In this document: positions 2 through 38,645 of the stretch, one piece after another
How positions within the stretch are numbered: position 1 is the first letter of the stretch
How the letters are laid out: each line of letters begins with the position of its first letter
NCBI GenBank assembly: GCA_000004985.1
Contig: GG738897.1
Direction: 5' to 3' (one strand)
From: Naegleria gruberi
Taxonomy: Eukaryota
DNA length: 64,000 nucleotides
Position numbers and translations under genes: made by a program
The notes under the pieces: model-generated
The model's input: the letters and a program-made list of their open reading frames with translations, nothing else
Database searches by the model: none
Told to the model about the DNA's origin: nothing

Positions 2-1309
2 TTGGTTGTTTTGGAGTTTGGAGAAATTTTTCAACAAGTTAACTTGACCTCTCTTTTGGAGAATTACTCTATTCGATTTTATGATAACAAGCAAGGAATG
101 GTATTTTATCAAAGGCTTCTTTCAGAACATAAGAATTATGATCTGAATAACTTGGAAAATGCACAATTTATTTACGAAGCCATTAATATTACAATTATTG
201 ATACAACATGGGAAATGCTATTAATTCCAATTGATTATCACGATTCTAGTGTGTTGACATTGGAAATTTTAATACCAATCATTATTGTTGTATTTGGTCT
301 ATTGGCCATACTCATATCTTCCATATCCTTCTCACGTTATACATTACGAGTTAGGGCAGACAAGGAGACTCTGGAGATATTTGCTTCTACAGACGAAACA
401 CTGAAAAAAGAAATTGTAGAATTTGTGGAAAATACCTTAAAGAAGGTTGAAAATTACGTAAAAGAAGAAAATAATTTGATAGAATGTATCAATTCCTTAG
501 ACCCTCTTGTCACTCTATTTATTGATGAATCTGCTTTAATTAACACTGTTAACAGGCCCTTCTTGACTTTATTTGGGTACAATGATGAAAGTGAATTGGA
601 AAATGTGGACCTACAACAAATCTTGCCACTGTTTGATATCACTGATGTTTACAAAACACATGAGAAAACACCTGCACAAGATAGAGAATACATTCTTCAT
701 TTCCCCTATGTTGAGGGATGTAAAAAATTCGGAGCTCGGATTAAACTATCTCTAAGCCTGACTTTTAGCAATACCTCAATAACAGAGCCAGTTTTCTGCA
801 CAATCCTACTCAAGCCATCTGAATCCTTATTGAACAATATTCCAATTGACGAGGAGATTACTGAGAATACGAGCAAGTTTATGAAGACGATAATTGAAAA
901 TAAGAGCAACATGATGAGTTTTATAGATTTTCTAAAAAAAAAGAGAAGACAAGATGATAGAAATATCATCTTTATTCAAAATGTGAAAGCTTATAAGGTC
1001 ATGAAAAATATACAGGAACGAAATTCGTATATGGAGGAAATAATCACCGATTGTATAATCTGTAAACCAAATGAGAGACTCTATGATGTGAGCCCTGAAG
1101 CATTTGATTCATTCCACAAAAAGGTACGAGAAAGTTCAGAAGATAAATCAGGTGTATTTGATGCTTTGGTAGTCATTGTCATTCAAAATTTCTTCCTTCT
1201 CAATGTGTTTGATAGCTGGCAAAAAGAGAGAACTCGTAAAGAGGCACCTTTGAAGAATTTGTTTGATCCAATTCTCAAATCCAAGACTAAACTTTCAAAC
1301 ATTAACTAA
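2..1309 (+). CDS. 5'-partial membrane protein with PAS-like and C-terminal RGS-like domain
   Basis: Open frame running off the window start, stop at 1307-1309. Hydrophobic TM segment (ILIPIIIVVFGLLAILISSISF). PAS-like stretch (LINTVNRPFLTLFGYNDESELENVDLQQILPLF). C-terminal RGS-like helices (SFIDFLKKK...FIQNVKAYK...FDALVVIVIQNFFLLNVFDSWQK). Domain calls are by eye. Confidence 0.45.
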   Translation: MVVLEFGEIFQQVNLTSLLENYSIRFYDNKQGMVFYQRLLSEHKNYDLNNLENAQFIYEAINITIIDTTWEMLLIPIDYHDSSVLTLEILIPIIIVVFGLLAILISSISFSRYTLRVRADKETLEIFASTDETLKKEIVEFVENTLKKVENYVKEENNLIECINSLDPLVTLFIDESALINTVNRPFLTLFGYNDESELENVDLQQILPLFDITDVYKTHEKTPAQDREYILHFPYVEGCKKFGARIKLSLSLTFSNTSITEPVFCTILLKPSESLLNNIPIDEEITENTSKFMKTIIENKSNMMSFIDFLKKKRRQDDRNIIFIQNVKAYKVMKNIQERNSYMEEIITDCIICKPNERLYDVSPEAFDSFHKKVRESSEDKSGVFDALVVIVIQNFFLLNVFDSWQKERTRKEAPLKNLFDPILKSKTKLSNIN

Positions 1310-7136: not shown

Positions 7137-10100
7137 TTATTTGAAGTAAGGCATTTGGAGAATCTGCCTTGCACTTGGACGAGTTTCCTGATTCCTGTCC
7201 AACATTTTAATCACAATTTCCATTAATTCATTCGAATATTGTTGTTCAGCTTCCATTTGCTTTGTGAGAATTGACACAGCATTTGCTGATTGATTTCCCA
7301 TCAACAAGTTTCCAATAGAAATTGTTTCATCCTTTGTCATGATCTGATAAATTGAAACTCCCAATGAGAAAATATCGGTATTGAAAGAATAACAACTTCC
7401 CAATGCAATTTCAGGACTATTTCAATATCATGGTCAATTAAGTTGTGAAATTTAACATTTGCTTACCTCATAAAAAGTGGAGTTCCAGCATAGGAATGAC
7501 CTTTCATTTCTTGATGCTTTTTAGCTAAGCCAAAATCAGCCAAAACAACTTCAATATCATTTCCAGAAAGATTTCGAATAAAAATATTTGAAGGTTTGAT
7601 GTCTCTGTGAATGATTGATAATTCTGAATGGACATAGTCAAGAGCACTCAGTACTTGTTTCATTATCTTTCGAATAATATCTTCAGAACATGTTTCTTTC
7701 TTTGTAAATCTTGTCAAATCGCCATTTTCAAAATAATCCATATCCATACAAAGTAAATTATCTTTTGTAATGAAATAATCATTGATTATCAAAATATTTG
7801 GATGTCTAATATTACTAAATTGTGATGCCTCTTTCATAATCGTATTCAAATCTGTAAATGATTCAAATTTCACAAACTTGACAGCTTTGATTTTGTTTCC
7901 ACATTTGGTATCTGTCACTTTGAATACACTTCCAAATGCACCTTGTCCAATTCTGACCATATTAATATATCTTGAAAGGACATCTTCATTATCTGACACA
8001 TTGGATCCCATAGACGATGAAATAATTACAGAACTGGATGGGAAGTCTGACATTTCAACAATTGTGGCATTTGCTATTTCATTTCTCTTCACTGCCTTCT
8101 TCTTCTTCATAGATAGTAGAATGATAACCACCACAACAATTATCACTATTATTAAGCCAATTCCAACAATTGGAATCACAATTGCAACCACCAAAACAGT
8201 TGTTGATTGATCGTTGGCTAAATTATCGAGTGAAGATCTTTCACAAAATTGACCATCGAAACCAGTAATACAGTTACAAATATCCAATCCAACACAACTT
8301 CCCTTTCCATTACAACTTTTTGAATCTGAAGAACTAGTTCCATTACAAGTGATTGGTTGACATTTGTCACCATAGAAACCACTCAAGCAATCGCATGTAT
8401 TATTGAAAGAATTGAATTGTGCTCCTCCTTCACAAACAGGATATAGCTTTCTAATTAGTGAAGTTACACCATTGGTTGACACTGTTTCAAGAAAAAGAGT
8501 TTCGTCCGATTTCTCATTTACATCAATAGTATAACCAAAACCAATAAAACTTGTTTCCACTCCCTTCAGGTCTCCATTGAAATAGGTACTCTGCTCTCTT
8601 GGTTTTCCTGCAATGGTCACTAACAATCCAGTTTTTTTCACATACTTTCTAATAATATTATTACCAGAATCCAATATAATTATATCACCATTCTCTTTCA
8701 CATAAAATGACTTAATTTGAGACAATTTAGACGAAACAGCAGGTAGATTATCACCACTATATCCATCAGTCCCAGTTCCAACAATACTCTTCAAATAGAA
8801 CGAACCATTCTGAAGTCGTTCCAAAACTCGAATGGTGTTTGCTGTGCAAAAGTAATGCAGGTCATCACTAATGGAATGAGAGGAACCAATGACACCAATT
8901 CGTTTGTCATTTTCTACAATGATTCCATCTTCAGATTCGAAAGGTGAATTGAGTGGATTCCAAAAGAATACACGAATCATACCTGAACTCTTTTCAATCT
9001 TTCCAAAAAAATCTGGATAACAAATGTAAATATCGCCATTCTTGGGATTTACAGAAAGACCTTTAGTACTTTGCTTTCCCAATGGAGAATTCAAAGCTGG
9101 AATGTCAGGAATCACTGTTCCACATTCCTTTCCTGCCACTTTCTGATATTTCAATGTTTTTGGATCAATTTGAATAATTCTGCAATAATCTGCAACATAA
9201 ATCATATTATCATAGAGAGAGAATACCATTTTAACATCAACTCTTGGAAAAAGTGCAAACATAAAGGAATCTAAAAGTACTAAAGAAAAGGAAAGGAAAG
9301 GTTTGACAGCTGGCAATAGAGAGGTAATTTCACCAGTTTTCTCATCATACTTCTTCAATACATTCTTATCTATTATATAGATTAGATTTTGATTTGGATC
9401 TCTGCAAAAGGAATTCATGTCCATACCAAGTAAGTTTGAGCTAGGATTGCTGCCAACTATAGTTTTGGCAATTCCATCAACTATTGTGTAAATGTAGGAT
9501 GATACTGTCGCAATGTAAATGACTCCATTATGTGCATAAATTGAATTAATCGACCTTTTAAGGTTTCGAATAAAAAATTTTCAAAGAAACTTACATTGCT
9601 GATTGAGTGGCATTAACATTCTCACCACTATATCCATCAAAATCAACATAAGTTCCAGAATATGTACCTCCATCAATTCCACCAACCTTTCTTAAACTAA
9701 GATCATCCAAATTTGCTTCATAAATTCTGTAACCATTCGCAACATAAATCTTTCCATATATGGAATCATAGGCAACACGTGAAATTGAAACTGGAAATTC
9801 AATCCAGTCCGAAGATTGATTTTTCCATTCCACTTTTATAAGTATTCCAGATGAAATATAATATAAAGTATTGTTTAGGATGGAAAACTCATTTACACTG
9901 TACTCAATCTTACTTGAATCTTGTAAAGTTTCGTTTTGATATTTGTAAATGCCATCTGAACTCACAAATCCAATGTACATTGTGCCATTATCAAAGGAAT
10001 TTCCAAAACCAGTAATAGAGCTAATTGGATTACTGTAATTAATTTGGAAATATCTCATCCTTAATGTATCCAAATTAAGAACGTGTAAATCGTGGTATCC

Positions 10101-12450: not shown

Positions 12451-13268
12451 AACTTGGTTTCAAGTTCTGAAATTGCTATCCTTCGATATTTACCATTCTT
12501 ATCAATGGATTTGACTCTTTCGTCATCTGTGAAATAAACAGTGTCATCTTTCCCATTCGAAACTACATGAATATTCTTTGGAGATCGAAGAATTATTGAA
12601 TTGGCCTCAACATTATCGTACGATCCATCTAGATATCCATTTCCACCAGCGATTGTTGTCAAAATCTTGCTGCCAATGTCATATTTCTTTATCACGTTAT
12701 TTCCAGAATCTTTTGACATGTTTCAAAGAAATTTAGAAATATTTAACTTACCTGCAATGTAGAGTATGTTATTATTGGAAACATACACTCCCAATGGTTT
12801 GTTGAATGCAAAAGGTAGAGAAGAAACCAAATTCGTCTCAGCAGAAACTAGACGAATCTTATCATTATTCGTGTCAGCAATCCACAAATCACCATTAATC
12901 GCCACACTCAACGAAGAAGGTGAATTAAACAAGGTTTGTTTCACATCATATCCATCCTGATTAAAACCAAGTCCTAACCCTCCAAAAACAATCATACTTT
13001 CGTTTGGAAAAATCTTGAAAATTAATCCTCTCACACAATCAGACACGAAAATTTCATCATTATTTCCAGAGCAGATGCCACATGGAGCTTTTAGAAAGGC
13101 ATGTTTGGCAGTGAATGTTCTGTCAACATCTTGACCATTGCCTTTGTATCCTGTTAGTGTTTGTAGTTGGTAAGTTTCGGCTGCTTTAGTTTGAAAGAAT
13201 TTGTCTGAACTGCTTTGAAAGAGAAGAAACAGTAAACAGAGCAGTATCATCAATGTGTTTAGTTGCAT
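12451..13268 (-). CDS. receptor kinase gene, N-terminal exons (signal peptide plus NHL-type repeats); exons 13268..12752 and 12709..12451
   Basis: ATG at 13268 gives signal peptide MQLNTLMILLCLLFLLFQSSS (the track's 13361 start is TTG). NHL-like repeats follow (IFVSDCVRGLIFK, LWIADTNNDKIRLV, ILYIAG). A 42-nt in-frame intron 12751..12710 (GTAAGT...tcaaaag) removes the TGA that separates the two track ORFs. Exon 2 ends ...ETK + TT|GTAAGT at 12451/12450, and the frame is restored at acceptor attag|AAATGG (exon starts 10650), giving ...ELETK-L-NGIFVSSNNEIW. Confidence 0.5.
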
Positions 13269-13504
13269 TTTTTTGAAAAGTTTCTCCTTGTTGACAATCC
13301 TGACACACATCAAACTCCTCTGATTGAGAGCTAGTTGATGACTTTTAGCATAATCTTGCAATAATAGAAATTCCCCGATTCCAACTAGAATAGTTATAAT
13401 GGAATCTTCAGGAGTTGGAGTTGTGGTTCCAATTTGTGGGTATAAAAATAACTTGGTTTACTACTCAACTGCGTGACAAAAGTTTTTTTTTCAAATTAAT
13501 ACTT

Positions 13505-13578
13505 CCCTTTGTAGTTCAATGGTTAGAACGTGCGACTGATCCACTCGCAAGATTCAGGTTCAACTCCTGGCAGAGGGT
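13505..13578 (+). tRNA. tRNA-like gene (9-nt anticodon loop CTGATCCAC; paralog of 6696..6769)
   Basis: CCCTTTG-TA-GTTC-AATGGTTA-GAAC-G-TGCGA-CTGATCCAC-TCGCA-AGAT-TCAGG-TTCAACT-CCTGG-CAGAGGG-T. All four stems pair. Differences from the paralog sit in the anticodon loop and as compensatory changes in the acceptor stem, which fits a functional gene family rather than a decaying pseudogene. Confidence 0.45.
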
Positions 13579-13844
13579 TCCTGAATTTTGGTCTTCCTAA
13601 GATGCTAGAGACATTAATAAACACCTTTTATTTTGAAGGGTTTTCTATCAGCAATTCCAATATTTGTTCTTCTCCAATGATTCGAATATAAATGTTATTA
13701 GAAACTTGAGCAACCCTCTGACTTGTTCAAGTTCTTGCCAATTACTATGAGTGCCCATTCACCATGTTCAAGCCAACTTCCATACTATCCATTATGTTAA
13801 ATAGACCACCTGCCACCTGTCATCCAAATCAAAAACAAAAAAAA

Positions 13845-14069
13845 ATGGTCAGCATTTACAGATTCTTTATGAATTGTCTTTTACTCTTTATTGGTGTCGT
13901 CTTTCCACCATTTGGTTTCCCACTTGTCATTGGTGAACATGTTCATGATGTCAATACTAGATATAAATATTGGGGATTGAATATTCTCTTGACTATTTGT
14001 TTGTGGCTTCCTGGAGTTATTCACTTCTTGTACTATTGGATTAAATCAGGTCATTTCTGTGCTGATTAA
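13845..14069 (+). CDS. Pmp3/UPF0057-family small membrane proteolipid
   Basis: ATG at 13845 gives a 74-aa protein MVSIYRFFMNCLLLFIGVVFPPFGFPLVIGEHVHDVNTRYKYWGLNILLTICLWLPGVIHFLYYWI. This matches the two-TM Pmp3/RCI2 pattern (LPPLGV...ILLTLLGWIPGIIHA). Confidence 0.6.
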   Translation: MVSIYRFFMNCLLLFIGVVFPPFGFPLVIGEHVHDVNTRYKYWGLNILLTICLWLPGVIHFLYYWIKSGHFCAD

Positions 14070-14299
14070 ATTGTTTAGAATAACGTTTCGAATAAATATT
14101 TCTGTTTGAATTGATGATGAAAAATTGCAAGTATGTGATGACAAGTTAAACGGCTACATATGTTTTGGGTGTTGATTCTAAAAAAGGTCATTTAGTTGGC
14201 GCCATTCTGTGAAATTTTCCTTCACATTCACTTTGCCTTTGTTTCCAATACTGTTTTTCATTCGATAGAAACAATTTACCATTTATTTAATCAAATTTA

Positions 14300-17200
14300 C
14301 TACTTTTTAATGGTCAATGGATCATAATCTGGATTCAATGAGCTTCCACAAGTAGCCACTTTTCCAAAATAGGAAAATTCAGAACTAGCCATTCCAGGAA
14401 TCATCAAATCATCACTTTTTACAACTTGAATCGTATCAACATGGAAAGTTCTCAATATTGTTGATGGTTCTGTCAAACTAAATCTCAACTTTTTGAGTGA
14501 AAATGAACTTGTTGTAAACTCAGAAATTGGAATTCTTACTCGTGCTGTTGTATTGTCAATCTTGTAATTTAAAACGTGCTCCTTCTTTACAATTACTTGT
14601 TTACCGAAAGCAGTTACTGAAATATTGAGTGGTCCATAATTATCTGAAACTCTAACAAAGAATTCGAAATGAGAATAGGCAGCACCGCTCAAACCATTAG
14701 TTCTTTCAAGATAGACATCACCACTTCCCATAATCATCTTGATTGCATTACCACATAATCCTCCTTCTCCATTAACTTCATAGGAAGCATCTCCATTTCC
14801 AGTAACAGTCGAGAATGAATTCAAATTGTCTGTGAAGAAGGCATTTCCAAAAGTTCCGTAATTGACACATGAATCTGTGGCATTGGCTATTGGAGGAGGT
14901 AAGGCACATGTCGAAGTAGTCGAATTACTGCAATATAATTGAGCTCTCAAATGTCCAGTTGGATTTTGAGTGGTTGACAATTTGACAAACATTTGACCTT
15001 TCAATAGAGCTACTTGTTCTTGATAAGATAAATCAAGGAGGAAACGACTGACACCATAAGGGGATATTGGATTATCCAATCCTGGATGGATAATTCTCTC
15101 TTGAGTACCGACAGCTCCAATTCCAACTGAAATTTCAGTGGCGATTAAATTCAAATTGTGGAAAACTGTGAAATCTAAAAGTTTTGCTTTGAAATCCCAA
15201 AATGCAAAGACTTTTCCTGAGCCATTTGAGCCAATGAGGGATGAGTTGACTGCTTTTTGTTGGCAGACTTCTAAATTTCCAACAAATCGATCTTCCTTCA
15301 TTAAGGTATTGTAAACTAATTTGGAAGAAGTTGGATTACCAAATTTAGATGGAGCACAGTTATTGTTTGGACAAGTTGCAACAATTCTAATCAAACCAAC
15401 ACTATGATAATCAGAAAATGGGTAAACATTCTCAAAATCATCTCTTGGCACTCTATTTTGTAACTTGACATATAAATGCTCAGTTGTCTGATTGTAATAT
15501 GCCAATTCATTTGGTGAAACCATGACCTCAGCCAATGAACTTGCCCAAGTCACAGGATACGTATTCGAACTTCCACTTTCTGACCAAGTTATCTTGAAAT
15601 CTGTCTTATTTGGATACTGAATTGCCAACACAATCCAATCATAGTTGACTGCATTTTTCAAGCTGACGGACAAATCTCTCGGAGTTGGATGATCATTTGG
15701 CCATCTCAGTCCATAAAATCCTCTATTAAGCAAGTTATATTGTATTACCCATGTGTTATCATTACCTCCTGGGCTTCCATTGGATGGTCCTTGAATATTT
15801 CTCAATTGGTCAACCACGTACATTCTTGGTGTGATGATATTTGCGTTTTTCAATTCAGGTTGTGCAACTCCTTTGGATGAGGTAGTATTGTATGTTGTAA
15901 ACTCGTTATTTCCGACCCTGAGTTGAACGAACATTTCACCAGTTGCGGGACAACCATAAGCACTCCAATCACTATTCGAAACACAACCAGAAAAGGCGTT
16001 CAATGGATCTTGACCAACAATCCAACCTCCACTTGGAAAACCACTAATACTTCCATCCAAATCTGCCCAAATTCCCATTCTCTGGTTATCATATGGAGTA
16101 TTATTCAAGGCATAGAACTTGTTAGAATTAATAAAGGTCAACCCAAAGAGTTTGTTAACTGCTGATTCCAATTGTTTACGAGAACGATGAGAAACTGCAC
16201 CAGAGGCCTTATATGCATCTGGAATAAAGTTAATAAATGTGCAATTGTAAAGTAATTGAGGACCGTCGTCTTCATAAACTTCGTAACCACGAATGATCAA
16301 CTCATCACTTGCATAGAGTTGAGGACGAGTTCTACCACCAACGTCAACCTTTGATCTGAAACTTGAATCGCCTACATTAGAGGTCTCACCAATCATGATA
16401 GAGTTTCTTGTAATAGTTGGTCCCTTTGGTGCAGTAATTTGTACGTTATTGTCAAATGCCAAAAAGTTTTCCAAATAAAGAACTCCTCCCTTAACCCAAG
16501 CTCCATAATCTCTATTCTTGTAAGCAGTAAAACGGAAGAATGAAGCTGACCCATTCAATGGGTAGTATCCCTCAGTTTCTAATGTACCATCAGAAAGCAA
16601 CATTTCATCAATCCACAATCCAGTAATTGAGCTGTGAGCAACGTTATCTTCGAATGGAGCCATTGCTGTTCTTCTTGGATTGAAATCTTGACCTGCATAG
16701 ATGGTAGCACTCATTCCAACAGGGAAAACTGGGAAAGAGAGCCAGAATCCGAACTTACCACCCACAGCAACGTTTCCAATAAAGGTATTGTTTGGCTTTT
16801 TTATGGTTGACTAAAAAATTGTAAAGAACTTTCAAACTTACATTTGTAATCCAATAGACACTAGCATCACAATCCGATGGAATAATTTGTAATTGATCAG
16901 CATCTCCAACCGGATTCACTTTTACGCCTAAATTATTTCTAAATTCATTTCCAAATTCGGAACCATCTTCCAAATAAAAAGCATGACCTGTAATATTGAA
17001 ACAGATATTGTTTTTCACGAGAATGTTTCTAGAATCATGAATGACGATGCATCTTTGATAACTATTCCAAATGGCATTGTTTGCAATCATGAATTGAGTG
17101 GAAATTTGTTTGCTTGTGTCTTTTAACAAGTGAAGATGTAATCCGTATCTTCCCATTAAACCTAAATATGAATAAACATTTAGATTTAGAGTTGAAATTA

Positions 17201-18172
17201 ACTGGAAATTATTCGAAACTTACCTTTTTGACCAACATTTCTCAACTCAACTCCAACAAACTGAAATTGCTTAACCAATCTAACAATCAAATGAGATCCA
17301 AAACTGGATGCATCACTTGAATCATCTCCCTTAAACACAATTCTTCTGGTCAACAATGCAACTTCTGAAAATGTGTAATCTTTACCAACGTGTGTGAAAT
17401 TTAGCGGACTTTCCAATGTCAATGTCAAACCATCAGCTGAAATTGCCTTAATAGTAGCTTTTTCATTTTGATCTGGAAAAGCAACACCTCTTTGCCAATT
17501 TCTGGAAGTGTCATTCATTATCTTGAAATCAACAACTTCACCATAATCAGTTGAAGTTAGCAAAATGTCATCGCCAACACTCCACATGCCAGTGACAGAT
17601 TCTTTCAATGTGATAGAGCTGGTATTCTTGAGTGCAGTAGCATTAAGACGTGTCCATGCCTTATCATTAATCAATTGTCCAACAACTTGAACAGTGGCAC
17701 CTGTCAAAAATGCAATTCCCTTATTTCCTAAATTAGCATTATCATATGGATCAGTACCAAGTGTATTTTCAGTAGATCTAGGACCATAAAATGTAATGGT
17801 AATCTTCTTATAGATAGGACATGAAGTACTTCCCATAATAAACGAAGCATTTCCTTCAACTCTAATGTGATTGACGTTAATATTCATGAATTTGTTGTCA
17901 AAGATTAAAGATCCACCACTTTGGACTGTGATTGAGCCATACTTGACTGGTGGGGAGGTTTTGATTAATACTTTCTGACCTGAAGTGATTACAATGGCAG
18001 ATTCAGCGACTGTGTAATTAGAAAGTGAACTAAAGTCGACTAAACCTGATTGACCGTAAGGACATGCTTGACCATTGGCAAAACCAAACCAACACGCGCT
18101 AATAACAAGAAGCGATGCTAATAAAGCTAGTAATTTCATTTTTTTTACAATGATAAGCTCTTCAAGTTCCAT
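14300..18172 (-). CDS. secreted G8-domain plus parallel beta-helix (PbH1) repeat protein, CEMIP/TMEM2-like; 3 exons 18172(or 18139)..17224, 17161..16842, 16810(or 16795)..14300
   Basis: Signal peptide MKLLALLASLLVISACWFGFANG. G8-like region (VITSGQKVLIKTSPPVKYGSITVQSGGSLIFDN...NINVNHIRVEGNASF). PbH1-like repeats (NAIWNSYQRCIVIHDSRNILVKNNICFNITGHAFYLEDG). Intron 17223..17162 (GTAAGT...atttag) joins ...NVGQK-G-LMGRYGLHLHL. The second intron has GTAAGT at 16841 with acceptor either tttttag (31 nt) or aaaaag (46 nt). Both choices give an in-frame WITN-(STIKK)PNNTFIGNVAVGGKFGFWLSFPV. Confidence 0.65.
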
Positions 18173-18537: not shown

Positions 18538-19826
18538 ATGGGACAAACACAACACACTGCCATTCCACCATCCAATTCTTCACCACCACCACCACCAGAA
18601 AATGAACATCACAACATACAACAATTAATTATCAACAACAAGATGAATGGGCCGAAAGAATTTTACTCGTCGGATTGAGAAGAAGTGGAAAGACACTCTT
18701 TCTTCAAACCTTGTGTCCTGATACAGTTTTATATAAAGATTTATTAGAATCTGTGAGTGGGAAAGTATTGCAACATATTCTGAAAGCAATGATGATTCAT
18801 AATGTTGAGGAAAAATTATTAGAATTGATGAAAATTGTGAAAATGTTTGATGAGGATGGAGAGAAAATTTCCAAGAATTTGCAAACTTTTGTTGAATTGT
18901 ACGTGAGAAGTAATTCATTACCTGCTGAGAGACCTATTTCTTTTGTGGAATTATTGTTGGATTTGTGGAAGTTTCGAATATTTGCAGAGTTTTATTATGA
19001 GAATATGGATAGATTTTATTTTAATGAAAATTTGGAATTGTTTGTTGACAAGATGAGAATGCATCGAGAGGATGGAATACTTTTTGATCCACTTCGAATA
19101 ATTTCAAAGGAAACTCTTGGATTTACAGCAGCTGTCAAGAAATTGGATAACAATTCCATTACTATAATTGAAAATAGAGGAACAAGACCTGATACAAATC
19201 TGAATGCCAAAAAGGTATTAGTGTTAACTGTTTCCCTGGTAGATTGCATGATTTCTGTAAAGGATGAAAGCAATTTACTGAACTTGACAACATTCACTTC
19301 ATATCCAAACTCCAAATTCGATTCTGCACTTTCCTTCTTTGAAGATATTGCCAAAAGCAGAGCATTGAAAGATTTCCAACAAAACACTCGTGTCTGTATC
19401 CTCTTTACAAAAGCAGATTTACTAATGAAACGATTGGAAAAATTCGAAACCTTTCCACGACATGAAAAGGAAGAATGTAAAACAATCCAGAGAAATGAAA
19501 TTTCAAATTTGAGAAATTTCTTCATGGAACGAAATGTCATTAATTATGTAGTGAATGAATTTTATGAAATTTTACGGAAATCTGGAATGGAAAGTATTGA
19601 ATTTGATTATCACATTATTAATGCATTGAATGAGGAGGAAGTGAATCGTGCATTTGAACTCATTGTAAAACCACTCAATCAACGAGGAGTTTCGAAACAT
19701 TATCTTTCTCCATGCCTTTACAGACCTTTAGAATACATTCCAATACAATTGTACAATAATCTTAACAATCAATACCTCACTGATGTTGTCATTATTACAA
19801 ATCCATCAAGAAACCAATCATTCTAA
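18538..19826 (+). CDS. divergent heterotrimeric G-protein alpha subunit-like protein (possible pseudo-GTPase); main ORF 18630..19826 with an upstream MG... start ORF out of frame
   Basis: ILLVGLRRSGKTLFLQTL aligns to the Galpha P-loop KLLLLGAGESGKSTIVKQM. IISKETLGFTA aligns to RVKTTGI. VCILFTKADLL aligns to IILFLNKKDLF (NKxD becomes TKAD). The helical-domain insert is present. The DVGGQ switch II position reads IENRG. The MGQTQHT... start at 18538 is in the +1 frame relative to the main ORF, and no GT donor lies in between (see findings). Confidence 0.55.
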
Positions 19827-20314: not shown

Positions 20315-21244
20315 ATGGTCGCTTACTTTGCTTCATTAGCTTCGTTAGATAACAATTTCGAAGATTTACGACCACGTAGACCTACCAAGGTTTCTCCCAG
20401 ATCTTCCACAAGCTCTTCTCCAAGAAATAATGCTGGGGAACATTCGCCAACGAGCCAAGATTCGTCCGACATTCTTCAACTTTCTCCAACAACAAGTATG
20501 ACGAAATTACCAGTAGAAAGGACTCGTTCACATTCGAATAGTGGTAACAGTACCTATTCTTCATCTTCAGTTTCGTCGAGTGGGTCTCAGAGTGTTAGAC
20601 GAAACTCACCATTAGAAAGTCCACAACCTCTGGAAAGGTCGATTCGTGAAATGGCAAGAAATTATGTGATCAATATTGAAAAGTTCCTGTCTACCAATAA
20701 TCATGATGAAAATGAGAGCTTTTCAGAGTTTCTCAAGTCTGAATGTAATTTGGCCCCTTTAGAATTTTATCAGAAAGTAACCGAATTCACGACTAAACCG
20801 GAAAAGAAGGAATTGGCACGTTATTTGATAAAGAATTATATCAAGGAAAGAAGTAATAGTGAAATTAATATTGCAAATAATGTGAGAGAAGTCATTTTGA
20901 AGGAATATAAGGAATGCAAGCACAACAATAGTCAAGTTTCGTCTAATATTTTCGAAAAGGCCTGTAATGAAGTTAAACTGTCGCTCAAGAATGACAGTTT
21001 CACAAGATTTGTTGCCAGTGAACAATTCAGCAAGTTAATTTTGAAGAAATTCAATCAAGCAAACAAATCACTAGATTCGAATAATTCTACAGAAATATTG
21101 GAATCCATTTTCGAATCAATTGGTTCTCTCTCCCCACTTTCCTCTCCTAAATTCTCTGCTCATTCTCATCCTCAAAATATTGTAAACAAATCTTTGGATA
21201 CTATTGCAAACTCTCAAATTATTGTAACTCCTCCAAATGAGTAA
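20315..21244 (+). CDS. RGS (regulator of G-protein signalling) domain protein with S-rich N-terminus
   Basis: ATG at 20315. The C-terminal 130 aa match the RGS fold: SFSEFLKSECNLAPLEFYQKVTEF...ARYLIKNYIKERSNSEINI...FEKACNEVKLSLKNDSFTRFVASEQF. Confidence 0.7.
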   Translation: MVAYFASLASLDNNFEDLRPRRPTKVSPRSSTSSSPRNNAGEHSPTSQDSSDILQLSPTTSMTKLPVERTRSHSNSGNSTYSSSSVSSSGSQSVRRNSPLESPQPLERSIREMARNYVINIEKFLSTNNHDENESFSEFLKSECNLAPLEFYQKVTEFTTKPEKKELARYLIKNYIKERSNSEINIANNVREVILKEYKECKHNNSQVSSNIFEKACNEVKLSLKNDSFTRFVASEQFSKLILKKFNQANKSLDSNNSTEILESIFESIGSLSPLSSPKFSAHSHPQNIVNKSLDTIANSQIIVTPPNE

Positions 21245-21836: not shown

Positions 21837-23015
21837 ATGTCCTCCATCACACAACGGGAAGCACCACCTTACACTAGAATTCAATATGTTTCGCTTTCAA
21901 CTCTTGGGGTCATCACGGAAAAGATGAAGACTAAGATATTAACAGTGGCTACTAAGGAAAATTCCAAGCACAATATTACTGGAGTTTTGATTTGTGTGAG
22001 GGATATGTTCTTTCAGATTATTGAAGGAAAGACTGCTGATATTGAACAATTATTTGCAAATATTGTCAATGATTCGAGACATAATAATGTTGCATGTGTC
22101 GACAAGTCGTATTTTGAAAGTGAGGATGATAGAATGTTTCCTTCGTGGGATATGAAATCAATTGAGGTTGATTGTTTGTTTCCTACCAAGAAGGATGTAT
22201 TGATTTGTGGGGAAAATTGTAATCCACTCGATCCAACTCATAAGAGAGTTATTGAGACTGCATTCTCTGCTTTTACAACAATGATGGGAAGTATGTTCAG
22301 AGCTCAACAAGTGTTCAAGAATTATGCCCAACCAAGTGTAACCAAATTTGTTAGGGATGGATTGAATCCTCTCTGTATTCAATCTGTTGTTACGGAAAAG
22401 ATTGTAGTTTTTATTGACCTTGTAAATTATACCACCTTGACAGAAATCATTTCTCAATCGAGAAGCGTTGCAGAAATTGTAAGAATTCTCAACTTGTTCT
22501 TTGCCTGCGTTATGGAAATTGTCGAAGAGCACGGTGGAGACATTACCAAGTTGATTGGTGACTGTGTAATGTGTCATTTTGATGGGAAAGATTCACAAAA
22601 GGCCATTGATTGTTCGTTGAAAATATTGGAACGATTAGACCATCTCAGATATGAAACAACAGATCCATTCGAAAAGCTCATCTACTGTACAATAGGAATC
22701 TCGAAGGGTGAGGTCATTTTGGGAAATGTTGGCACAGTTGGAAGAAAGCTTGACTATACAGTCATTGGTGATTCAGTAAACACATCAGCAAGATTACAAT
22801 CCTTTGCCTCCACTACTCAATACTATCTCATTTTCGATGAGAATGTAAAGAATGATTTGATTAATGAAGATTATGTAATATCGTGTGGTTCGATTGAATT
22901 GAAAGGAAAGAGAAATACAGTCAATGCCTACACAATAGAGAATGTATATAATAGAAAACCTCAGAAAGAAGATTTGAATGGTCTTTTCAATGTGTGTTCT
23001 TTATCAATATTGTAA
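21837..23015 (+). CDS. BLUF-domain / class III adenylyl-guanylyl cyclase fusion (photoactivated adenylyl cyclase-like)
   Basis: BLUF motifs YTRIQYVS...NITGVL...FFQIIEGKTADIEQLFANIVNDSRH...FPSWDM. Cyclase homology domain FIDLVNYTTL...KLIGDCVMCHF...CTIGISKGEVILGNVG...YTVIGDSVNTSARLQS. Confidence 0.8.
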   Translation: MSSITQREAPPYTRIQYVSLSTLGVITEKMKTKILTVATKENSKHNITGVLICVRDMFFQIIEGKTADIEQLFANIVNDSRHNNVACVDKSYFESEDDRMFPSWDMKSIEVDCLFPTKKDVLICGENCNPLDPTHKRVIETAFSAFTTMMGSMFRAQQVFKNYAQPSVTKFVRDGLNPLCIQSVVTEKIVVFIDLVNYTTLTEIISQSRSVAEIVRILNLFFACVMEIVEEHGGDITKLIGDCVMCHFDGKDSQKAIDCSLKILERLDHLRYETTDPFEKLIYCTIGISKGEVILGNVGTVGRKLDYTVIGDSVNTSARLQSFASTTQYYLIFDENVKNDLINEDYVISCGSIELKGKRNTVNAYTIENVYNRKPQKEDLNGLFNVCSLSIL

Positions 23016-23043
23016 ATAAACTTTTTAAAAAAATGTCAAAAAA

Positions 23044-23982
23044 ATGTCTCGTGTCGTAGTGGAACTTGTTGATTTAAATGTCGTGGAAAATTCATCATCA
23101 TCAGATCATATTATTTATTTAATTAATATATTGAAGAGATCATTTACAAAAAAAAAACATCAATTTTCGTTGAATTTTAACATGATTGGTCAATTTGATC
23201 AACTTTCTCCAAAAGATCCTGTCTTTGATATTGCCATTTCCAAAAAATATGACACGATACTCATTCCACAGAGGGTTGGTATATCAATTTATAATAGACC
23301 AAGCAGTCGGGAAACTTTCCATCTCGAGCAATTATTCAAAGTAGAGAAACCCAATTCTGGGCTTCGTTGTATGAAATTGGTTGAAGAGGAAGGAGAGGAA
23401 TTTATCTATGCAACAGATTACTCAAGCACTGTTGTTAAATTTAGTGTTTCGGATATTATGATACGAAAAGTATTTTCAATTATTTGGCAATCTGAATCAT
23501 TTTCTAATTTGTGGGGATTGGATGTTTTGAATGGAAAAGTTTATGCAGTTGACAATATGAAGTCAGTTAAAATTTTGGATTGCAAAAGTGGTGCAACTAT
23601 TTCAGAAAATGCTCCAAATGTAGCAGAAGGATACGGTATTCATTTCTTGTCAGAGAAACAAGCAGTAGTAAGCAACTCAAAGAAAGTGGAAATATTCGAA
23701 AGGGACAATTTTGGTAATTGGAATTCCATCAAACAAACTCAATTTCCAATGGAAGCTGCTTATTCAATTTTCTGTGAAGAATCATCCGGATTAATCTATG
23801 TTTGTGATGATTCTAAATTACATGGATTGAATATTCATGTGGTAAGACAGAATGATTTGACATTGGTGAAATCATTTCCAATTCCTTCCTTGCATTTTGG
23901 TGTTATGGTGGACGATAAAAGTGGATTGCTGTATGTGTGCCATTATGAAAGTTCGAAAATGCAGGTTAATGTTTATGAATAA
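23044..23982 (+). CDS. hypothetical protein (possible beta-propeller)
   Basis: 312-aa ORF from ATG with coding-like composition. No recognisable motif. Confidence 0.35.
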   Translation: MSRVVVELVDLNVVENSSSSDHIIYLINILKRSFTKKKHQFSLNFNMIGQFDQLSPKDPVFDIAISKKYDTILIPQRVGISIYNRPSSRETFHLEQLFKVEKPNSGLRCMKLVEEEGEEFIYATDYSSTVVKFSVSDIMIRKVFSIIWQSESFSNLWGLDVLNGKVYAVDNMKSVKILDCKSGATISENAPNVAEGYGIHFLSEKQAVVSNSKKVEIFERDNFGNWNSIKQTQFPMEAAYSIFCEESSGLIYVCDDSKLHGLNIHVVRQNDLTLVKSFPIPSLHFGVMVDDKSGLLYVCHYESSKMQVNVYE

Positions 23983-28406: not shown

Positions 28407-29364
28407 TTACAAATTATTCAAGTCAACCAAAGTGGAATTTTCCATCAATTCTTTCAATTCATCTTCCCATCCCAATTCTCTCACTAACAATTCCACACAT
28501 CCATCAATGGTCTGATCAGCTCCTCCCAAATATAAATCCAAATGATTATTCTTCACATCACATTCTCTAATAGCTGATTGAATATTGTAAAATCCTCCAC
28601 ATCGATCTCTATTGATTAAAACTCTCATCGTTCCATGAGGTGCATATTCTGGAAGGAGGGCCACTGGATAAACTTGTAAACTAGTTCCAATGACAATGAA
28701 TAGTTTACAATTTTTGTGTTTTTTCAAATCTTGAAAAACACATTCTCCAAATTTGTCTGGTAAATCTTCTCCGTACAGAACTACATCAGTTTTTACAATA
28801 TTTCCACAAACATTGCATTTGGGAATTTGAACTTCTTCCTCACTTTCACTTGTCATTTGATCTCTCAAATATTGTAAAGTAAATTGTTTTTTACAATGCA
28901 TGCAATGAGAGGTGTGCAATTTTCCATGACAATGCACCAACAATTCATCTGAAACTCCACTTTTTCTCTCCAATCCATCAATATTTTGTGTGTACAATCT
29001 CATTAACTTGTTCTTATCTTGCAATAGCTTGATAAAGAAATGAGTTTTCGATGGTTTGTATTCGGTGGCAATGAAATTCTTCATTCTTTCAAAAAATGGA
29101 ATTGGATTTTCTTTGAAATAACCAATTTCGAATATTGATGTTGGATCTTTGACTTCGTACTTATCGAGTGAGCCATTTACAAAGAGTCCTTTACCTGGAG
29201 TTCTAAAATCTGGAATGCCACATGAAGTTGACAATCCGGCACCTGTCAATACAATTATGGAGGCATCTGAAATGTTGTTAATTTGCTGAGCGAGTAATTT
29301 GACAGCATCAAGTCGTTCCTCATCAGAAATGGTTGGTTCCACACGTTCTTTCTTTTTCGTCATT
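28407..29364 (-). CDS. sirtuin (Sir2-family NAD-dependent deacylase)
   Basis: ATG at 29364 (MTKKKERVEP). Motifs GAGLSTSCGIPDFR, QNIDGLE, and Zn-ribbon CMHCKK...CNVCGN. Confidence 0.8.
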
Positions 29365-29691
29365 TTTTTTTGCAGTGAAATTTGGAAGATAATTTTGAAC
29401 AGTTGACAGAAATTTGAAGTTGAACTTGACACTTTACAATACAACAGCAAATTGTTTTCAATTTCCAACTTCCACACCTATCTTTCAAAATATTTCCGCT
29501 TATCAAGTAGAAACTTTTCTATTGGTTGATGCACCACCAATCTTTCAAATTCGTCGCCTTTCATACTCAAATTTACAACACTGTTCAGTTCAAGTGGTTT
29601 AGAATATTATAAATACCTGCTGCTGATGCTTCTAATTAAAAACAACAAAAAATATAACCAAACAACTCATTAGAAACTAAACTAAACGAAA

Positions 29692-31208: not shown

Positions 31209-32876
31209 TTATTCAGTTTCAATCATGGTATCTTGGATAGTTTCGAATTCGTCAGAGTCTTGAAAATCATCTTCTTCAATAATAACTTCTTCTTCTTCTG
31301 AACTGTCCATGTATTCGGATTCGAGTTGAGAGCTATCTTCTCCGAATTGTGTATCTTTGAAATTAATATCGAATATTTGTTCCACATAGCGTTTCATTTG
31401 ATTCCATTGATTTTCCAATAGTTCAAAACTATTAGAAATTGCAGCAAGTGCTTCTTCACTATTGTCATTGAGTAAAAGTGAATATTCTACAATTTCTACC
31501 AATTCAAATGCCTGTTCACATTGTTCAGCACCAATTAATAATTTGATCTCTTCAATATTTCCTTTAATTTCGTCTAGTTTGTCCTCATTCGTCTTTCCAA
31601 TAATGGAATTATAACGTTTCCTTACACCTTTGTCAGTTCTCTCCTTAATACCTTTTAATAATTCAATCATCAAACTAGCCTTTTCAGCACCAACAGCATT
31701 ATTCTCTATTTGATAATAAAGATTAGTGAGCTTTCTCATCAGTGGAAGAGTTTCTTCTTGGATTTCGTATCTTCCAAATTGGAAAGAATCAAGTTCTATC
31801 ATAGGAATCAACTCTACCTCACATAAATTGTGTTTCAAGTAATATTGTAAATTTGCCCTATAGGCAGCTGGAGTTTCTTTAGAATACATTATTGTAATCT
31901 TTTCCAACGTTCTGGCAGAAATATGAGAGTTGACAATATCTAACATGGCTATCTTTTCAGTAATAACCAAGTGTTTGCATTTTGGAAATAATTTAAATAA
32001 ATTCTCCAATAAACTTTTCAATGTCAAATTTGGTTGGATTGTAATATCCTTTACAATAACTTGGTTCACACAATCAAAGTGATAAGTTTCTGATTTGGTT
32101 GCTTCCAAACTAAACTCTTGGAAGGTTATTTGTTCAACTTCTTCAGCTTTGCATTTTCTAGACTGCAGTTCTGCAAAGTTTCGAACATAAAGTTTAGTCA
32201 TTTGATTGTACCAAACTGCTGGTGGATCACTCTTTAAAATTTGAATATCCTGTAAATGAGGACGAATCTTTCTTATAAATTCATCACTTTCGACTAGTGG
32301 AAATTCTAATTTCAGTACAATTACCTTCTTCAAATCGGTGTGGTCAAGAATATTGATATCTTTAAAAGCAGACTTGAAGAATTCAGTGTCTGATGTGAGA
32401 ATATTGATCGATTCAAGATATGGAGAGAATGAAAACAGTTCACCACTCAAATCTAGGTTGTGTATGAAGCCACATCCATTAAATTCAATATTCTGAATTA
32501 AACTATTCGAATCTAAAAGTTTCAACATTTCATACGGACTACCAAGAATGACATTCCCTAAAAATAACACTGATCCGAATCTTGTCAAGAAATCTACTTC
32601 ATTAATGGTATAGGAATTCACCATAGAAAGTGAACAGTCTTGTAATTCAAAATTTGAATTATTAGAAACTAAACTCTCAAGTAATTGCAACTGTTCTTCG
32701 TTTCTTATGAATCCTCCCTTGTTCATTTTGATCAATTGGAGAAGTCTCTTTTCGGGGAGTGACTTTGATAATGCCACAACAAGTCCCAAAAAATCTTCTC
32801 CCAACAACTTTAAGATGATAAAAAAGTTGTCATTAGCAAGTTTTTCGAGTCTTGATTTTTGGTTTCTGTTGTACAT
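31209..32876 (-). CDS. hypothetical leucine-rich protein with acidic C-terminal tail
   Basis: 555-aa ORF from ATG. Leucine-rich repeat-like segments. C-terminus is SSEEEEVIIEEDDFQDSDEFE. Confidence 0.35.
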   Translation of the reverse strand: MYNRNQKSRLEKLANDNFFIILKLLGEDFLGLVVALSKSLPEKRLLQLIKMNKGGFIRNEEQLQLLESLVSNNSNFELQDCSLSMVNSYTINEVDFLTRFGSVLFLGNVILGSPYEMLKLLDSNSLIQNIEFNGCGFIHNLDLSGELFSFSPYLESINILTSDTEFFKSAFKDINILDHTDLKKVIVLKLEFPLVESDEFIRKIRPHLQDIQILKSDPPAVWYNQMTKLYVRNFAELQSRKCKAEEVEQITFQEFSLEATKSETYHFDCVNQVIVKDITIQPNLTLKSLLENLFKLFPKCKHLVITEKIAMLDIVNSHISARTLEKITIMYSKETPAAYRANLQYYLKHNLCEVELIPMIELDSFQFGRYEIQEETLPLMRKLTNLYYQIENNAVGAEKASLMIELLKGIKERTDKGVRKRYNSIIGKTNEDKLDEIKGNIEEIKLLIGAEQCEQAFELVEIVEYSLLLNDNSEEALAAISNSFELLENQWNQMKRYVEQIFDINFKDTQFGEDSSQLESEYMDSSEEEEVIIEEDDFQDSDEFETIQDTMIETE

Positions 32877-33766: not shown

Positions 33767-35203
33767 TTAAAGGAGTGGTTTTGAAGTGTTGATTCGTTGG
33801 TTTTGTAAAAAAGTTTCAACACTATTTGAAAGATAAGGAAATAAAGTTGAAAAAGACTGTTTTCCAATACAAATGATGTTTGAGTACTTATTTCTTGATA
33901 ATCTTTCCACCTCCTTATTTGGATGTAAGCGAATTATTACATTAAGGGAAACACCTTTTTTAATTGACTCCCATACTTGACATCTTGAGCTTTCCCACCA
34001 TTCATTAAGCTTGCTATTATTGGCTTCTTTAATATTTTTCACAAACAAGTCAAATTCACTGTCTGTATCAAGCTCTTTAATCGATTCCAATTCATTGAAA
34101 GTGGATTCTACACTATTATCATTTTCGTTGATATTAGACTCAATTTCATTCACAGTGGTTGATTGGTTTTCATCACTTGATCCATTGCCAATTTGTATTT
34201 TCAATTCTTGTTTAGCTTTTGTAACTTCAATACCTTTGCTAAAATTATTAATAAAATTATTAAGGACACTTGTAGGTGTGTCATTCTTTCTTAATAAAGT
34301 TATTGTTTCTAAATCTATAGTGTTATATTCGTTTAAATACATTAGTTCAGGAGCCAATGATTTATATCCAATATCTAAATCATTTCCAGTAAGTGCTTTT
34401 ATACTTATTCGAAAATGAACTGGAGTATAATTGGCTAAATAGAATAAATAAATATCTGTATGATTATGATCTGATGGAAACAATGCTATTTGATCTATCT
34501 TTTGATAATCTTCTTTTTTAATAAACCGAAAGAATAATTGTTCACCTGAATATTTATCTGATTCACTATCAATCCAATTATTATCTTTACAATAATCATA
34601 AAAACTTGATGAATTGAATAATCTTTTACATCTAACCTTGCAATCCAATATTGGTATGACATCAGGTTGCAATACGTATTTCGTAGAAACTATCATACTT
34701 TTTAAGGTAATATCAAGCGATGTCAAGGCAATACCAATTACTGGTTCCATAATTTCTTCTCTATCAGAAAGTGTTAATAATTGGGAACTAATGGTTTGAG
34801 GAGTATCTGAATATGGAAAGTTCATATTACTTAAATATTGAACACAAAAACCATATCCAAGTGCATCAACAGCATAGAATTGTAGCTCGTTATCACTGGA
34901 AGGACCGGTTATTCCTGACATTACTAAATTTTTAGCAACTTGTCCATCTTTTACAATAAATGTTGATCCCAATATTTCTGGAAACTTGTGGTGCATGATA
35001 TATTTCATTAATACTAATTTAAATGATTCCATGTAAATCTGTCTAGACTTTTCCATACGTTCTTCGAATGATTTACATTTGCTTTTAATGTATTCTTTCA
35101 TTTTTGTTTCTGAATTCATAAATGCTCCTGTTACATCCTTTTTTTGATCCATCATATCAGATGTAAAATATAAAGAGCCTGTCTTCTTCTCATTGGAAAC
35201 CAT
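33767..35203 (-). CDS. hypothetical protein (possibly downstream part of the P-loop gene at 35518..36819)
   Basis: 478-aa ORF from ATG at 35203. Same strand as the two ORFs upstream (35152..35448 and 35518..36819), close together. I could not resolve the splice junctions. Confidence 0.35.
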   Translation of the reverse strand: MVSNEKKTGSLYFTSDMMDQKKDVTGAFMNSETKMKEYIKSKCKSFEERMEKSRQIYMESFKLVLMKYIMHHKFPEILGSTFIVKDGQVAKNLVMSGITGPSSDNELQFYAVDALGYGFCVQYLSNMNFPYSDTPQTISSQLLTLSDREEIMEPVIGIALTSLDITLKSMIVSTKYVLQPDVIPILDCKVRCKRLFNSSSFYDYCKDNNWIDSESDKYSGEQLFFRFIKKEDYQKIDQIALFPSDHNHTDIYLFYLANYTPVHFRISIKALTGNDLDIGYKSLAPELMYLNEYNTIDLETITLLRKNDTPTSVLNNFINNFSKGIEVTKAKQELKIQIGNGSSDENQSTTVNEIESNINENDNSVESTFNELESIKELDTDSEFDLFVKNIKEANNSKLNEWWESSRCQVWESIKKGVSLNVIIRLHPNKEVERLSRNKYSNIICIGKQSFSTLFPYLSNSVETFLQNQRINTSKPLL

Positions 35204-36893: not shown

Positions 36894-38645
36894 TTAATTC
36901 AAAGTAAATCCATATAAATTTCCAATGTTTTTCCGATAATCAATAATGGTATTAATTGTTTGGGAGTCGATTGAATCGGTGCTTTGTTCTCTACGTTCCC
37001 TAACGAGTTCATTAAAGTTGGAAATCAAATCAGATTTTGAATTCTTATTGGATTTCCACATGGTGAGTGGAAGAAAGCTGTTCATATCAAAATAAATCAT
37101 CATGGAGTATCTGCACTCGGTATTTGAAATCCTCTCAATGTAAGACCCTCCAAATAGAGACCCCTTGGTGTGTCCTTTTGGTGGTTGAAATTTGGAGTTG
37201 TGAATTGGAAGTCTGGCTATCCAATAACTTGATTGTTTCGAATTGCAAATAGAACTAAAGGTTTCTTGATTCTTATTTTCCTTTCCAATGTGCCATTCGT
37301 GAAGAGTTTCATCTCTTGCTGAGAGACCAACATGGAAATATCTGGAAGTGAGTGGGAAATTCTTCTTTACACACAATTGACTAATAATACAGGAATAGAT
37401 ATCTCCCTGAACATAATCAATGTGCGAAGTTTCCTCAACTGCTTCTTTTGAAAAGTAGGAATCAAACATGATTCGGATAACTTCATCTGTGGATGCTTTC
37501 ACAATACCAGTTTCTTTGAAAATCTTGAATTTTTCCTTTTTTAACTTTCGTTTCGAATCTGAATTGTAATGTTTCAAATTAAGTTCGGTATAGTACGAAG
37601 TGGTTTCTCCATTCACTCCAGATTGATGCCAAATACCTTCATCTTGGTGAAGCATTTTAAAAAGTGTATAGTGCTTATCTTGGACTATTCCACTTCCGTC
37701 TAACATTACACTTTCTAATACCTCAAACACTTTGGATGAAGAAGGCATTACATGAAGTGAAGATTTAAAATCTGAGTCTCCATCATATGGGTAAGATTCT
37801 GTATCTTCTGAATTTGGTGAAAAAGCTCTGCTCGATTTTGGTGATGAACAAACTTTAGCTCCCTCAATTTCGAAACTTTCATTCGAAACCTGATTCGATT
37901 CTCGATCTTGAATAGCTTGCACCAACTTGTCTGACAATGATAAATTATCAGACATCTTTCTACAGCCCATCTGAATATAAAATCGTTCTAAAAAGTCACA
38001 AACTTGATTGATTGAAATTTTCGAAACCTTTCTAAATTCCATTGCCGATTGATCTAACACAAATTTTGCATACAGATCACTTCCAACAAATCTCATATAA
38101 TTATCAGTTCCCAAACTATAGTGAATATGTGAAAAAATCGGATCAAATATCGTAACTGGTGTTTCCTTAATCGAACACTTGGCAAATTCTTTCATAAAAT
38201 TTTCCTTCACATGATTCGGCAAGTTTAGTTGATTTGCAGAACAATCCTTTACATAAATATCAACCAATTCGTGTCCTAATTTAAATCTATTCTTTGCAGA
38301 TTTCAGCAATTTGAATTCATCCAATTTAAAGATAAACTTCAAAGTCATAACATTTTGCTCAAGTTCGAGAAATTCATGAAAAAGTTGGACGAACGAATCT
38401 TGAAAACCTCGATCGAGAAAATCATCAAATGGAAGGGTGAATGAGTGGGAAACATCCTTTAGAAAGTTTGATAGAATGATGGTTTGTAGTTCTCCTAGCG
38501 GGAGTTGAAATTTGTATTCGTTTAGAATATTGTTGGGTTTCGAAAAGTTTCGGGTATCAAAGGATCGTTGTTTTGTAGGTGATGATGGTTTGGTGATGAA
38601 TAGCAGAGAAGGTGAAGAAGCACCTTTGGGCGAGGTTTGTGTCAT
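36894..38645 (-). CDS. RGS-domain protein with C-terminal START-like domain
   Basis: N-terminal RGS fold (FLKDVSHSFTLPFDDFLDRGFQDSFVQLF...DNYMRFVGSDLYAKF). The C-terminal roughly 200 aa resemble a START lipid-binding fold by pattern only. Confidence 0.5.
   Translation of the reverse strand: MTQTSPKGASSPSLLFITKPSSPTKQRSFDTRNFSKPNNILNEYKFQLPLGELQTIILSNFLKDVSHSFTLPFDDFLDRGFQDSFVQLFHEFLELEQNVMTLKFIFKLDEFKLLKSAKNRFKLGHELVDIYVKDCSANQLNLPNHVKENFMKEFAKCSIKETPVTIFDPIFSHIHYSLGTDNYMRFVGSDLYAKFVLDQSAMEFRKVSKISINQVCDFLERFYIQMGCRKMSDNLSLSDKLVQAIQDRESNQVSNESFEIEGAKVCSSPKSSRAFSPNSEDTESYPYDGDSDFKSSLHVMPSSSKVFEVLESVMLDGSGIVQDKHYTLFKMLHQDEGIWHQSGVNGETTSYYTELNLKHYNSDSKRKLKKEKFKIFKETGIVKASTDEVIRIMFDSYFSKEAVEETSHIDYVQGDIYSCIISQLCVKKNFPLTSRYFHVGLSARDETLHEWHIGKENKNQETFSSICNSKQSSYWIARLPIHNSKFQPPKGHTKGSLFGGSYIERISNTECRYSMMIYFDMNSFLPLTMWKSNKNSKSDLISNFNELVRERREQSTDSIDSQTINTIIDYRKNIGNLYGFTLN

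Follow-up and report, generated by a model that had tools for sequence, protein, structure and literature searches.

The solved photoactivated adenylyl cyclases (PACs) closest to the gene considered here are bacterial: OaPAC from Oscillatoria acuminata (PDB 4yus and 5x4t) and bPAC from Beggiatoa (5m27). Both present the same parts in the same order, a BLUF domain, a connection consisting of helix alpha3 and the "handle", and a class III cyclase domain. A BLUF-regulated class III adenylyl cyclase is found also in another protist of the Discoba, Euglena gracilis, but each of its subunits, PAC-alpha and PAC-beta, carries two BLUF domains and two cyclase domains, while the Naegleria protein described below carries one of each. 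The Euglena subunits, the subject of a 2002 study by Iseki and colleagues, reportedly form a heterotetramer that mediates photoavoidance. Within the genus Naegleria, a photoactivated adenylyl cyclase of N. australiensis (W0SLB1) is said to come from a study by Yasukawa and colleagues in 2013, and a BLUF-only relative has been reported from N. fowleri. N. gruberi itself possesses four PAC genes, NgPAC1 to NgPAC4 (PMC5608697).

Three of the four N. gruberi proteins have been put to work in mammalian cells. Blue light raises cAMP in HEK-293T cells carrying NgPAC1, NgPAC2, or NgPAC3 (Tanwar et al., Sci Rep 2017, PMC5608697), about 14-fold with NgPAC1, about 34-fold with NgPAC3, and moderately with NgPAC2, the weakest of the three. 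CREB phosphorylation, Cox-2 expression, and the output of PGE2 are likewise light-dependent and give the same ranking, and in HEK cells the activity of NgPAC2 lies below that of bPAC (PMC5608697). For the photodynamics of NgPAC2, which has been examined spectroscopically, the same paper refers to Penzkofer et al. (Chem Phys 2013, 412:96), and it reports that the protein has a flavin photocycle with slow recovery; NgPAC2 and NgPAC3 return to the dark state more slowly than do bPAC and NgPAC1. Other papers count the Naegleria PACs as part of the standard PAC toolbox.

The DNA analysed here is a stretch of 64 kb of N. gruberi nuclear DNA (the window); coordinates are positions within it, on the plus strand unless stated otherwise. 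At 21837..23015, the ORF listing and an exact-sequence match agree on a complete, single-exon coding sequence: one uninterrupted, intron-free ORF that runs from ATG to TAA and encodes 392 aa. The GC content of the window is about 34% throughout, and by a hand estimate the chance that 392 codons should remain open in stop-rich DNA of this composition is about 1e-13. A chance ORF or a pseudogene may be set aside, as the frame is intact, the translation matches an annotated protein exactly, and all of the key residues discussed below are kept. A bacterial contaminant may be set aside as well, in view of the eukaryotic context with its 34% GC and of neighbours that are eukaryotic signalling genes, one of them on the same N. 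gruberi contig.

A preliminary description of this DNA, made from the letters alone, proposed that a BLUF domain is fused here to a class III cyclase domain, and profile searches bear this out, both profiles scoring well above their Pfam cut-offs. The BLUF flavin-binding blue-light sensor domain (PF04940) occupies 21876..22157 (residues 14-107) and reaches 79.9 bits, the cut-off being 25 (E 1.5e-22). The class III nucleotidyl cyclase catalytic domain (Guanylate_cyc, PF00211) occupies 22404..22940 (residues 190-368); here 58.5 bits compare with a cut-off of 21.9 (E 8.9e-16). Between the two, at 22233..22355, the secondary structure predicted by AlphaFold2 places a linker helix alpha3 (residues 133-163) and a "handle" helix (166-173) that connect sensor to cyclase, and this stretch aligns with residues 111-135 of OaPAC and with bPAC from residue 113 onward.

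The preliminary description went further and read the protein as a photoactivated cyclase, and the closest solved structures agree with that reading, by sequence and by fold. Amongst all PDB chains, the best sequence matches are to OaPAC, with E about 2e-61 for 5x4t, 4yus, and others, and to bPAC, with E about 3e-56 for 5m27 and others. In both, the BLUF and cyclase stretches match those of the ORF in the same order, colinear over the whole length, whereas isolated cyclases and isolated BLUF proteins give far weaker matches. A tblastn search with the PAC found no paralogue and no second copy of BLUF or cyclase domain within the 64-kb window.

The gene is not new. Its 392-aa product is identical (100%) to an annotated N. 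gruberi protein, EFC39700.1 / XP_002672444.1 / UniProt D2VTR5 / NAEGRDRAFT_72396, whose RefSeq entry (XP_002672444.1) is recorded on a contig of 326,913 bp. Which of the four NgPACs it represents has to be worked out, since the identifiers D2VTR5, XP_002672444, and NAEGRDRAFT_72396 were not found in print in the literature that was searched. The cloning primers used for three codon-optimised NgPAC genes are given in Table S1 of PMC5608697. The forward primer for NgPAC2 encodes M-S-S-I-T followed by CA (the start of a codon for Q or H), and the ORF begins with MSSITQ; the primers for NgPAC1 and NgPAC3 encode MSSIQE and MPTMNN, respectively. At the other end, the NgPAC2 reverse primer, read as its reverse complement, encodes S-I-L-T-Y-E, and the ORF ends with LSIL; the TYE that follows SIL is a linker that occurs also in the reverse primer for NgPAC1. 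A deposited sequence of 395 aa in the same 90% cluster (P0003, UniParc UPI000392399A) consists of the ORF protein plus a C-terminal TYE. Also, the calculated mass of 44.3 kDa agrees with the published value of 52 kDa for NgPAC2 with its tag, the tag adding about 7 kDa to bPAC. From the termini encoded by the primers, the tail of the deposited construct, and the size, we infer that the accession and the name NgPAC2 belong together, and between NgPAC2 as published (Penzkofer et al. 2013; Tanwar et al. 2017, PMC5608697) and the ORF no difference can be detected. The ORF is thus almost certainly NgPAC2, a soluble fusion of BLUF and class III cyclase domains of the bPAC/OaPAC type.

It follows that the gene is already known and its product experimentally characterised. 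It has been annotated in the N. gruberi genome since 2010, and the protein, characterised as NgPAC2, has been used as an optogenetic source of cAMP. The assay by which the preliminary description would have checked its claim of a light-regulated cAMP source, heterologous expression with a light-dependent measurement of cAMP, is already in print for NgPAC2 (PMC5608697). The locus therefore carries little weight as a discovery; what it shows is that a BLUF-cyclase fusion, down to its key residues, can be recognised in raw DNA.

Those residues were examined in two ways. Equivalent positions were read off by counting in the HMMER alignment with OaPAC, and conservation was judged from an alignment of 11 PACs (the ORF protein, two PACs of N. 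australiensis, and eight bacterial PACs). The motifs quoted in the preliminary description for the sensor are present: YTRIQYVS at residues 12-19, FFQIIEG at 58-64, and SWDM as part of FPSWDM at 101-106. Within the BLUF domain are found Y17 (codon 21885-21887), which lies in the beta1 motif IQYVS, N46 (N34 of OaPAC), Q60 (codon 22014-22016; Q48), W104 (W90), and M106 (M92). Y17, W104, and M106 are invariant amongst the 11 PACs and Q60 nearly so. N46 is swapped for Gly or Glu in three of the 11, the other key residues being invariant or at least 90% conserved. In the linker region, Y163, G175, and P178 are invariant.

The cyclase domain is similarly complete, with D194 (codon 22416-22418), K238 (22548-22550), D242 (22560-22562), D306, T308, N315, R319, and K358 all located. 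The absence of the metal-binding Asp residues would have told against a working cyclase, but both are there: D194 and D242, equivalent to D156 and D200 of OaPAC, are invariant in the alignment. The residues that specify the substrate, K238, D306, and T308 (K196, D264, and T266 of OaPAC), are invariant as well and are of the ATP type, not the E/C of GTP-specific enzymes; ATP is therefore the predicted substrate. The pair associated with the transition state, N315 and R319 (N273 and R277 of OaPAC), is invariant or nearly so, as is K358.

The predicted structure tells much the same story. An AlphaFold2 model of the monomer, built from the alignment of 11 PACs, has a mean pLDDT of 81.8 and shows a BLUF fold of the form beta-alpha-beta-beta-alpha-beta-beta, followed by a helix of 31 residues (133-163), a second, short one (166-173), and a cyclase fold. 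When the model was compared with the PDB by Foldseek, the best 23 matches were all chains of OaPAC or bPAC, each covering about 360-384 columns, with E values from 1e-31 to 4e-35. The cyclase domain superimposes on the isolated cyclase domain of bPAC (5mbg) with a TM score of 0.90 and an rmsd of 2.2 A. Whole-chain comparisons with the crystal chains give TM scores of 0.55-0.65 and an rmsd of about 14 A, values that are to be expected of a monomer model, in which no dimer partner sets the angle between the domains. By homology to the solved PACs, the protein would form a parallel homodimer with its active sites at the interface.

A mechanism can be proposed on the basis of homology to bPAC and OaPAC and of general knowledge of class III cyclases. 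A flavin, bound non-covalently in the BLUF pocket, would absorb blue light, leading to proton-coupled electron transfer from Y17 to the flavin and, in consequence, to a rearrangement of the hydrogen bonds of Q60. Strand beta5, with W104 and M106, would then shift, and the change would travel through the alpha3 (133-163) and handle (166-173) helices of the parallel homodimer to the cyclase domains. There, two active sites would be formed across the dimer interface, each drawing some of its residues from the partner chain: D194 and D242 would hold two divalent metal ions, K238 together with D306/T308 would select adenine, and N315 and R319 would stabilise the transition state. The net result would be an enzyme that makes cAMP from ATP at a higher rate in the light than in the dark.

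With respect to OaPAC and bPAC, the ORF protein has all of the photochemical and catalytic residues in common at an overall identity of about 28-33%, but it is eukaryotic, and it differs from them at three places where the Naegleria proteins depart from the bacterial PACs. First, about 25-35 additional residues lie between strand beta5 of the BLUF domain and helix alpha3. These include an N-terminal extension of alpha3 and a Cys-rich insertion, DCLFPTKKDVLICGENCNPLD, encoded by 22170..22232 (approximately residues 112-132), which lies between beta5 and the linker helix and is absent from the bacterial PACs in the alignment of 11. The Cys-rich insertion is modelled by AlphaFold2 with low confidence (pLDDT 57-63) as containing a small hairpin (121-128). 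Second, four residues, SQSR (22455..22466, residues 207-210), are inserted after the first metal Asp, an insertion that the bacterial PACs do not have. Third, there is one extra residue in the loop GNVGTVGRKLD, before D306.

The nearest other proteins, both from N. australiensis and both called "Photoactivated adenylyl cyclase", are 77% and 54% identical to the ORF protein; next come bacterial PACs, with 30-34%. The closer of the two, W0SLB1 (P0004), is 77% identical over 98% of the length and shares the architecture, the Naegleria-specific insertion after the BLUF domain, and the SQSR insertion, but it comes from another species, is shorter by 8 residues, and diverges at its N- and C-termini. 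When 1.84 billion representatives were scanned exhaustively with phmmer, just 67 clusters were found at E<=1e-30, which agrees with the patchy distribution of PACs that had been stated beforehand. Most of the 67 are proteins of 330-370 aa that match in two stretches; a few, of 700-1300 aa, match in four and are taken to be of the euglenid type. The roughly 50,000 weaker matches are ordinary cyclases.

If the gene is NgPAC2, then what does NgPAC2 do in Naegleria? Since its activation by light is only moderate in HEK cells, its main role in vivo could be a different one. Perhaps it is mainly a regulatory paralogue of low activity, forming heterodimers with the more active NgPAC1, NgPAC3, or NgPAC4 or setting a basal level of cAMP instead of working as a light switch by itself. 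Class III cyclases are established to act as dimers, N. gruberi has four PAC genes that could supply partners, and a moderate rise in cAMP does look modest beside the approximately 14-fold and 34-fold rises obtained with NgPAC1 and NgPAC3 (PMC5608697). The catalytic and photochemical residues are intact, however, with no degenerate site of the sort seen in pseudo-heterodimeric cyclases, and expression in HEK cells could have made the activity look weak. A mainly regulatory role is on balance unlikely.

The surroundings of the gene suggest a different possibility. The preliminary description drew attention to G-alpha-like and RGS genes within a few kb of the cyclase. As to position this is correct: a very divergent G-alpha-like ORF (18675..19826) and an RGS-domain gene (20315..21244) precede the cyclase in that order on the same strand, upstream of it, with about 490 bp between the two and about 590 bp between the RGS gene and the cyclase. 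The functional link that the description implied is another matter, and the G-alpha call itself falls below the cut-off. The RGS gene is clear, matching the Pfam RGS profile at residues 129-241 with 60.5 bits against a cut-off of 23.9 (E 2.6e-16). The G-alpha-like ORF reaches 44.5 bits against the cut-off of 48.8 for PF00503 (E 1.5e-11), a score obtained with a query ORF that probably lacks its 5' end. A phmmer search of the PDB, whether run at E 1e-3 or at E 10, found no solved G-alpha that matches it, and a search for homologues at E<=1e-10 returned only the N. gruberi model itself (100% identical). The reading frame is open upstream as far as 18609, with no ATG, and passes through a P-loop-like sequence, LLVGLRRSGKT, so a 5' exon of the gene has probably been missed. 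Read by eye, the ORF has Ser at the presumed position of the catalytic Arg of switch I (SKETLGF) and Thr at that of the catalytic Gln of switch II (ENRGTR); judging from these motifs, the protein may be GTPase-deficient.

The three genes could be seen as a functional module, in which the RGS protein would tune a divergent G-alpha-like protein that binds and modulates the PAC, so that light and G-protein inputs were integrated on one enzyme. The tandem arrangement on one strand, with the gaps given above, speaks for this, and class III cyclases are the classical effectors of G-alpha in animals (PMC9283941). If true, it would constitute a soluble, light-gated counterpart, outside of animals, to the control of adenylyl cyclase by G proteins. 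In animals, it is membrane class III cyclases that G-alpha-s and G-alpha-i modulate. Adjacency means little, however, in a eukaryote without known operons, and neither family is rare enough to make its presence telling: N. fowleri has 79 RGS proteins beyond the 7TM-RGS class (PMC9283941), the 64-kb window itself has at least two clear RGS genes and one below threshold, and G-alpha has undergone a lineage-specific diversification in N. gruberi (PMC3971589). The G-alpha-like ORF, moreover, is under the Pfam cut-off with no solved G-alpha as a match. Finally, in HEK cells NgPAC2 responds to light by itself (PMC5608697), and bacterial PACs function without G proteins. The adjacency is real, yet it cannot be counted as a sign that the genes are coupled. 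That the three genes make up a working module is very improbable, and it is just as improbable that, within a tandem unit that includes the RGS gene, a soluble BLUF cyclase is under the control of a highly divergent G-alpha-like protein that may be GTPase-deficient.

The second of the clear RGS genes lies at 36894..38645 on the minus strand (50.3 bits), and the one below threshold at 2..1309 (20 bits against 23.9). Over the RGS domain the two clear ORFs share no more than 27% identity, which makes this an old expansion of the family and not a recent tandem duplication.

Hardest of all to credit is the notion that the cyclase domain of NgPAC2 makes cGMP or some other cyclic nucleotide, or is catalytically dead: PF00211 does cover adenylyl and guanylyl cyclases alike, but K238 and D306/T308 are residues of the ATP type rather than the E/C or E/G of the GTP type (and on these grounds a guanylyl cyclase is rejected), neither metal Asp residue is missing, nor is the N/R pair, and production of cAMP by NgPAC2 has been measured (PMC5608697).

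The rest of the window is varied. Directly downstream of the PAC, on the same strand, is an ORF of 312 aa with no Pfam match (23044..23982), which begins 28 nt (23016..23043) after the PAC stop codon; a tiny upstream ATG lies between the two, at 23034. This leaves two options: the PAC transcript overlaps, at its 3' end, with the start of the next gene, or the downstream gene begins at a later Met. On the other side, at 12723..18172, is a run of minus-strand ORFs with domains of extracellular type: NHL repeats at 12723..13361, CEMIP domain X with a beta-helix at 14300..16765, and a G8 domain at 17198..18172. The last two ORFs are probably exons of one large gene of the CEMIP/G8 type, situated just upstream of the G-alpha-like ORF.

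Many long ORFs in the window have no match to Pfam at all, for example those at 31209..32876, 33767..35203, 45135..46913, and 48597..50318. Among those that do are a protein kinase with an EGF-like region (7463..9424, minus strand), a Sir2-family deacetylase (28407..29477, minus strand), and a methyltransferase of the MT-A70 family (52034..53389, plus strand). An ORF of 722 aa at 56965..59133 (plus strand) consists of 11 tandem DUF4116 repeats (Pfam E 2e-106).
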